A program made the position numbers and the translations under genes. A DNA stretch of 64,000 nucleotides from Escherichia coli (GTDB taxonomy: Bacteria > Pseudomonadota > Gammaproteobacteria > Enterobacterales > Enterobacteriaceae): NCBI RefSeq assembly GCF_041886205.1, contig NZ_CP169029.1, one strand, 5' to 3'. Below the pieces are notes generated by a model. That model had not been told where the DNA came from and did no database searches. It saw only the letters and a list, made by a program, of their open reading frames with translations. Positions 58,345 to 58,560 of the stretch are shown here, piece after piece (the first letter of the stretch is position 1; each line of letters begins with the position of its first letter).

Positions 58345-58560
58345 CAAGGCTGTTATTGCCGGATGCGGCGTGAACGCCTTATCCGACCTACACAGCACTG
58401 AACTCGTAGGCCTGATAAGACGCGCAAGCGTCGCATCAGGCAATGCTGTTATTGTCGGATGCGGCATGAACGCCTTATCCGACCTACACACAGCACTGAA
58501 CTCGTAGGCCTGATAAGACACAACAGCGTCGCATCAGGCGCTGCGGTGTATACCTGATGC
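58345..58560. repeat. BIME: tandem pair of roughly 105-bp REP-containing units
   Basis: Two near-identical units each containing ccggatgcggcgtgaacgccttatccgacctaca and gtaggcctgataagac...gcgtcgcatcaggc. Confidence 0.85.

Follow-up and report, generated by a model that had tools for sequence, protein, structure and literature searches.

The repeat array described here occupies the spacer between pepA and holC (257 bp, 58335-58591) in a 64-kb stretch of Escherichia coli DNA, which was analysed as a whole and is referred to below as the window. The upstream gene, pepA (56823-58334, + strand; stop codon TAA at 58332-58334), encodes the leucyl aminopeptidase PepA of 503 aa and matched NCBIfam NF002072 over its full length with 1093 bits. 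On the same strand, holC (58592-59035) encodes the chi subunit of DNA polymerase III (HolC, 147 aa; full-length NCBIfam equivalog match, 338.7 bits) and is followed by valS (59035-61890, +; full-length NCBIfam equivalog match), whose start overlaps the holC stop at 59035. The same pepA, holC, and valS calls are present in the RefSeq annotation of strain E275a, which was 100% identical to the window over the 701 bp compared. The array is wholly extragenic, extending from after the pepA stop (58334) to before the holC start (58592); an earlier reading made from the sequence only had placed it right after the pepA stop and before holC, and gene identification confirmed this position. The last 29 nt of the spacer (58563-58591, +) form a holC leader outside the repeats, ATTTAAATCCACCACAAGAAGCCCCATTT, in which AAGAAG is the presumed ribosome-binding site. 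A promoter consensus scan of positions 58200-58700 detected no promoter-like site, and a terminator consensus scan of the same region returned a single terminator-like site, located inside pepA on the - strand. Upstream of pepA, the annotation of the identical RefSeq strain places the small protein gene ytgA (about 56619-56669, -) between lptF and pepA, and both ytgA and ytgB are annotated there in K-12. The Rfam family Ysr276 (Yersinia antisense sRNA) matched at 57381-57575 (-) with 174.7 bits against a gathering score of 100; as this match lies inside the pepA CDS on the opposite strand, it probably reflects the conserved pepA coding sequence.

Tandem Repeats Finder (TRF) reported a single array at 58340-58539 with a period of 98, 2.1 copies, 91% matches, and a score of 333, and a repeat search of the spacer gave two in-register direct-repeat families with spacings of 96 and 98 bp. 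The measured period of 96-98 bp replaces the unit of about 105 bp proposed earlier. The two tandem units proposed at the same time were found, but they are clearly related rather than near-identical, with 78 of the 86 aligned columns of their Y-linker-Z cores (91%) being the same. The REP units were delimited by a regular-expression parse and the Y core by a pattern search. The array opens with a partial unit directly adjoining the pepA stop, namely a remnant of the 3' half of a Z-type REP, TTGCGTCAGGCAA (58335-58347), and a head-to-head-type linker, GGCTGTTATT; this segment (58335-58357, +) is in register with 58433-58453. It is followed by the first Y-type REP, GCCGGATGCGGCGTGAACGCCTTATCCGACCTAC (58358-58391, +), which has a CTAC foot at its 3' end and a predicted hairpin of -15.3 kcal/mol (z -3.7), a tail-to-tail linker of 14 nt, ACAGCACTGAACTC (58392-58405, + strand), and the first Z2-type REP (58406-58441, - strand), which is inverted, reads GTAGGCCTGATAAGACGCGCAAGCGTCGCATCAGGC on the + strand, and forms the most stable of the hairpins (-21.9 kcal/mol, z -5.4). 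A head-to-head linker of 12 nt, AATGCTGTTATT (58442-58453, +), leads to the second unit. This consists of a Y-type REP, GTCGGATGCGGCATGAACGCCTTATCCGACCTAC (58454-58487, +; -17.4 kcal/mol, z -4.5), a tail-to-tail linker of 16 nt, ACACAGCACTGAACTC (58488-58503, +), which is 2 nt longer than the first, and an inverted Z2-type REP with a degenerate upper stem, GACACAACAGCGTC (58504-58539, -; -16.6 kcal/mol, z -3.6). Positions 58540-58562 (+) align with the unit start at reduced identity and represent the decayed start of a further unit, a partial third repeat.

The folding z score of the whole pepA-holC spacer was -6.1. The segment CCTGATGCG (58553-58561) is able to pair with CGCATCAGG of the second Z2 REP, giving an alternative hairpin of -15.7 kcal/mol. 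Three copies of the 26-nt Y core are present in the window, two in the array and one at 43678-43703, against none in 100 dinucleotide-preserving shuffles; the core of the first Y REP is identical to that of the lone copy. A duplication arising from chance similarity or from an assembly artefact has a negligible probability given these shuffles, the TRF score of 333, the presence of a two-unit allele in 8 of 40 sampled genome rows, and the existence of a record identical to the window at 100%. This reading was rejected, as two-unit alleles recur among complete genomes. The lone copy at 43676-43709 (+) is itself a canonical Y-type REP, GCCGGATGCGGCGTGAACGCCTTATCCGGCCTAC.

Knowledge of REPs and BIME-2 arrays goes back to the 1980s-90s, and the spacer array is an element of this already known kind; its earlier description as an ordinary feature therefore remains valid, the type having been well described. 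A REP is defined as an imperfect palindrome of 30-40 nt with a conserved GTAG/CTAC foot and a stem mismatch (PMC3333891), and all four REPs of the array are 34-36 nt long, carry a CTAC or GTAG foot, and form a hairpin with an internal mismatch or bubble. Both types match their references, which answers the question of the REP consensus. The Y units show two to four differences from the Y REP query TGCCGGATGCGGCGTAAACGCCTTATCCGGCCTAC (from PMC11208160). The reverse complement of the first Z REP, GCCTGATGCGACGCTTGCGCGTCTTATCAGGCCTAC, is identical to the Z2 unit of the K-12 element REP325 (yjdM-yjdN), whose unit was labelled Y-l-Z2 by Qian et al. (PMC4550694). The BIME of inverted REP pairs recognised by the sequence-only reading can accordingly be specified as a BIME-2 of Y and Z2 REPs, with the unit order Y (CTAC 3')-iZ2 (GTAG 5')-Y-iZ2. 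By definition, a BIME-2 combines y and z2 REPs, is repeated several times in tandem, has short linkers, and varies in copy number between strains (PMC3333891, Ton-Hoang et al.; PMC1187871). All of the defining features that are testable were found in the array, the linkers being judged by their length and by the absence of an L linker and IHF site: they are 12, 14, and 16 nt long, the long L linker of BIME-1 is absent, and the IHF consensus WATCAANNNNTTR does not occur on either strand of the array. BIME-1 (RIB-RIP) shares with the array an inverted REP pair in an intergenic 3' region but is a single-copy element with a Z1 REP and a long L linker containing an IHF site, whereas the array is tandem, with Z2 REPs and linkers of 12-16 nt (PMC3333891). 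The resemblance to REP325 is closer: both consist of alternating tandem Y/Z2 REPs with a period of about 100 bp and an identical Z2, and both lie between two co-directional genes. They differ in size (12 hairpins in six units in REP325 versus two units here), in the linkers (l = AACGGTGCCGACT plus a 17-nt spacer in REP325 versus AATGCTGTTATT and ACAGCACTGAACTC), and in the orientation relative to transcription, which is opposite (iY-l-Z2 in REP325, Y-linker-iZ2 in the window). The spacer array is thus very probably a BIME-2 of two tandem Y/Z2 REP pairs in the pepA 3' UTR, representing one allele of an old, copy-number-polymorphic REP cluster of Escherichia.

The likeness to REP325 bears on the Rfam annotation of the array. 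The naRNA4 family (RF02564) matched at 58409-58484 on the - strand with 82.2 bits, above the gathering score of 59.5, and at 51.9 bits on the + strand. Taken at face value, this score would mean that the array encodes a nucleoid-associated small RNA of the naRNA4 type, one that would bind HU and condense DNA; we consider this very improbable. Because REP325 units were the model for RF02564, every Z2-linker-Y junction in a BIME-2 will match the family, and the sequence and structure match above the curated threshold is a result of BIME-2 content. The match spans the Z2/head-to-head linker/Y junction, which needs at least two units and is absent from K-12 and from a quarter of strains. The strand scoring above the threshold is antisense to pepA-holC, the only evident transcription, whereas the + strand is below it; the lack of a promoter-like site in 58200-58700 also argues against such a gene, and the nucleoid role of naRNA4 itself has been disputed by a 2026 preprint (bioRxiv 10.64898/2026.03.23.713779). 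The naRNA4 gene was rejected, and the Rfam match was taken as a label for REP content. Small open reading frames overlapping the array, of 67 and 46 aa on the - strand and 45 aa on the + strand, exist mechanically, and the proposal that they encode small proteins is extremely improbable. These frames consist almost wholly of REP sequence, PGAP annotates no gene at the array in the identical strain or in others, and the gain or loss of a 96- or 98-bp unit, or a full swap for another repeat, would destroy them. They were rejected as coding sequences and regarded as by-products of the REP sequence.

Alignment with K-12, which had been suggested as a check, showed one unit in K-12 and two in the window, one clean 98-bp indel apart. 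The spacer of K-12 MG1655 is 159 bp long, and a single 98-bp gap is the only difference from the window in the aligned spacer and gene ends, which are otherwise 100% identical. At this locus in K-12 MG1655, the first Y REP of the window is joined to the last Z2 REP of the window to give one unit, and the second Z2 REP of the window is the same variant as the only Z REP of K-12 between pepA and holC. The extra 98 bp of the window comprise the first Z2 REP, the head-to-head linker, the second Y REP, and a linker. A length difference that could pass for an assembly or alignment problem is thereby explained. The two-unit allele of the window was found again in strain E275a (100% identity over 701 bp), and three-unit alleles with a 353-bp spacer were observed in other complete genomes. 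The expectation that the copy number would vary between strains was borne out: E. coli alleles have one, two, or three units, and four were found in a related Escherichia genome. Copy-number polymorphism of BIME-2 between E. coli strains has been published (Bachellier 1997, as cited in PMC3333891 and PMC1187871; Ton-Hoang 2012).

To count the alleles, 5,426 complete E. coli genomes were searched with queries specific to each allele. A BIME with at most three units was detected in 4,016 of them and one with at most two units in 1,529-1,535; three units are thus present in about 2,480 genomes (46%) and one or two in about 1,530 (28%). The K-12 one-unit query does not split one-unit from two-unit genomes, because overlapping pieces are joined in the search; within this class, roughly one-third have one unit and two-thirds have two units, an approximate division taken from evenly sampled row spans. 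A two-unit allele was present in the 8 of 40 evenly spaced sample rows mentioned above, consistent with roughly a thousand genomes. The one-unit class is probably inflated by K-12 laboratory derivatives, because an identity of at least 99% to the K-12 query was seen in 431 records. The remaining genomes correct the sequence-only reading in one respect: in about a quarter of E. coli genomes, REPs are absent from this site and a different repeat takes their place. This non-REP allele was found in 1,405 of the 5,426 genomes (26%; 1,401 by another query), and about five genomes fell outside both the BIME and the non-REP classes.

The spacer of the non-REP allele is 133 bp long and contains a different palindromic element, CCCTCACCCTAACCCTCTCCC-TAA-GGGAGAGGG..., which we take to be 'boxC'-like. 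The element is 105 bp long and stands in place of the BIME, beginning immediately downstream of the pepA stop and reaching the conserved ATTTAAATCC. About 12 blastn-detectable relatives are present per genome. Escherichia coli 15.TR.026_OXA is an example of a strain with this allele, and O111:H8 strains are among the carriers. Repeats of the boxC type occupy the same pepA-holC site as the BIME, also form strong hairpins, and are found in many other genera as well, but they belong to an unrelated sequence family with the arms CCCTCACCC, CCCTCTCCC, and GGGAGAGGG; a published description of boxC gives its size and copy number.

The relationships of the BIME alleles were evident from the three-unit form, which was labelled Y1 T1 Z1 H Y2 T2 Z2' H Y3 T3 Z3, each element having diagnostic substitutions. 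With these labels, the window allele is Y1 T1 Z1 H Y2 T3 Z3, another two-unit allele with a different junction is Y1 T1 Z1 H Y2 T2 Z3, and the K-12 allele is Y1 T1 Z3. A second one-unit allele and the two-unit allele of CFT073 have substitutions of their own, and Z or linker elements have been converted in two three-unit alleles. Each shorter allele is an in-register mosaic of the three-unit form, with all junctions falling within stretches, either REP or linker, that are identical between units. Such junctions are the expected product of unequal recombination or replication slippage, and units would be gained or lost by these processes acting between REPs. A contribution may also come from TnpA-REP, the REP-associated transposase, for which in vitro recombination of BIMEs has been reported (PMC3333891). 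Gain and loss of units are not polarised, because concerted evolution within lineages blurs the ancestral state. The one-unit and two-unit states arose more than once. The use of the array as a typing marker, proposed earlier, is therefore of limited value: the locus is indeed variable, but it has few states, and its one-unit and two-unit alleles have arisen independently.

The array is also a target for insertion. In the genome of E. coli GPEC403-625, one of the few outside the BIME and non-REP classes, a 1,280-bp IS621 interrupts the last Z2 REP of a three-unit pepA-holC array, the insertion point lying between GTAG and GCC with duplication of the AG/CT core; at least one genome is thus affected. 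The site matches the published natural IS621 target ATCAGGCCTAC (PMC11208160). Both Z2 REPs of the window carry the IS621 11-mer, at 58406-58416 and 58504-58514 (- strand). IS621 is a bridge-RNA recombinase element of the IS110 family.

Beyond E. coli, one genome per species of Enterobacteriaceae was scanned for the holC start, which yielded 99 loci, and the pepA-holC spacer was delimited in 92 of them. The adjacency of pepA and holC is conserved among these 92 species, with spacers from 64 to 455 bp. Three Y/Z2 units were found in E. albertii, two in E. whittamii, one in another Escherichia sp., and four (455 bp) in a genome labelled E. coli SCPM-O-B-8794, which was counted as a related Escherichia. 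As sister Escherichia species have from one to four units, the BIME is old at this site and predates the species E. coli, and the boxC-like allele of E. coli is most simply explained as a later replacement. In other genera, the same spacer contains genus-specific REP pairs, boxC-like or ERIC-like elements, and, in Salmonella, a single REP-like hairpin. A strong hairpin was predicted in 92 of the 92 spacers, the median for the best 70-nt window being -36.6 kcal/mol compared with -21.2 kcal/mol for shuffles. The holC leader (58563-58591) is common to the BIME and non-BIME alleles and is kept in many enterobacterial genera. These last approximately 30 bp before holC (ATTTAAATCCACCACAAGAAGCCCCATAT), conserved across many genera, may be more than a ribosome-binding site.

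By analogy with characterised REP elements, the array would likely act as a group of 3'-UTR hairpins protecting pepA mRNA and damping read-through into holC-valS, and additionally as gyrase sites on the DNA. Its placement downstream of the co-directional pepA and the predicted stability of its hairpins would fit a 3'-UTR stabiliser and attenuator. In transcripts initiated at the pepA promoter, the four hairpins would act as barriers to 3'-to-5' exonucleases and thereby stabilise pepA mRNA; they would also partly attenuate read-through into holC-valS, partly via Rho, and a larger number of units should strengthen the effect. The stabiliser role, which the sequence-only reading had also raised, agrees with published observations on other REPs. 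REP325 is a partly Rho-dependent attenuator of the downstream gene and a stabiliser of the upstream mRNA, and across the genome the expression of tandem gene pairs with a REP is biased towards the upstream gene (bioRxiv 10.64898/2026.03.23.713779). Stem-loops, including REPs, define Rho-terminated 3' ends and protect them from PNPase and RNase II (PMC6061677). At the DNA level, gyrase is likely to bind and cleave preferentially at the Y REPs; its cleavage is enriched in BIME-2, with binding and cleavage reported for a subset of these elements and a preference for y REPs (PMC6379681). The preprint on REP325 reports that REP effects depend on context and that terminal REPs are not generally linked to longer mRNA half-lives (bioRxiv 10.64898/2026.03.23.713779). 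A supplementary table of the same preprint lists a terminator after valS with the gene string yjgN:pepA:holC:valS, which hints that some transcription passes through the REP. A literature search on the pepA/holC REP yielded nothing specific to this locus, and no pepA or holC entries were found in the supplements of the Term-seq, SMRT-Cappable-seq, and RepRanger papers. A quarter of E. coli genomes lack REPs at this site and K-12 has a single unit, so a dosage effect, if there is one, must be widely tolerated. The stem of the first REP begins 23 nt past the pepA stop codon. REP-induced ribosome stalling, attributed to Liang et al. 2015, is said to occur within 15 nt of the stop, and the first stem would lie outside this range.

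The same BIME-2 could also be selfish or neutral and lack any function specific to the locus, REPs having piled up in a permissive spacer where their number drifts by slippage or recombination. This explanation, which is compatible with the BIME-2 identity, is plausible, although on balance we doubt it. It is favoured by the tolerance of the site, which accepts from one to four units, an unrelated boxC-like repeat, and even the 1.28-kb IS621, by the variation and conversion of unit sequences, and by the differences in repeat families between genera. It accords less well with the strong hairpin kept in all 92 species, well above the shuffled controls, and with the published data in which other REPs measurably affect neighbouring genes (PMC6379681, PMC6061677, bioRxiv 10.64898/2026.03.23.713779). 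A more speculative proposal is considered rather unlikely. The spacer would be a long-lived hotspot in which unrelated palindromic families (BIME-2, boxC-like elements, the REP pairs of other genera, and ERIC-like elements) swap, selection asking just for a strong hairpin as the 3' end of pepA mRNA and as an insulator before the essential holC-valS, and the number of BIME units, from one to four, would serve as a heritable dial of read-through. Returning to the preferred role as protective and attenuating 3'-UTR hairpins, the array matters little by itself, and the alleles of the locus form a possible natural series for testing the effect of REP dosage on neighbouring expression.

Elsewhere in the window, a SymR antitoxin RNA was identified at 15265-15341 (-; Rfam, 88.4 bits), and a tRNA-Leu(CAA) gene is located at 51282-51366 (-).
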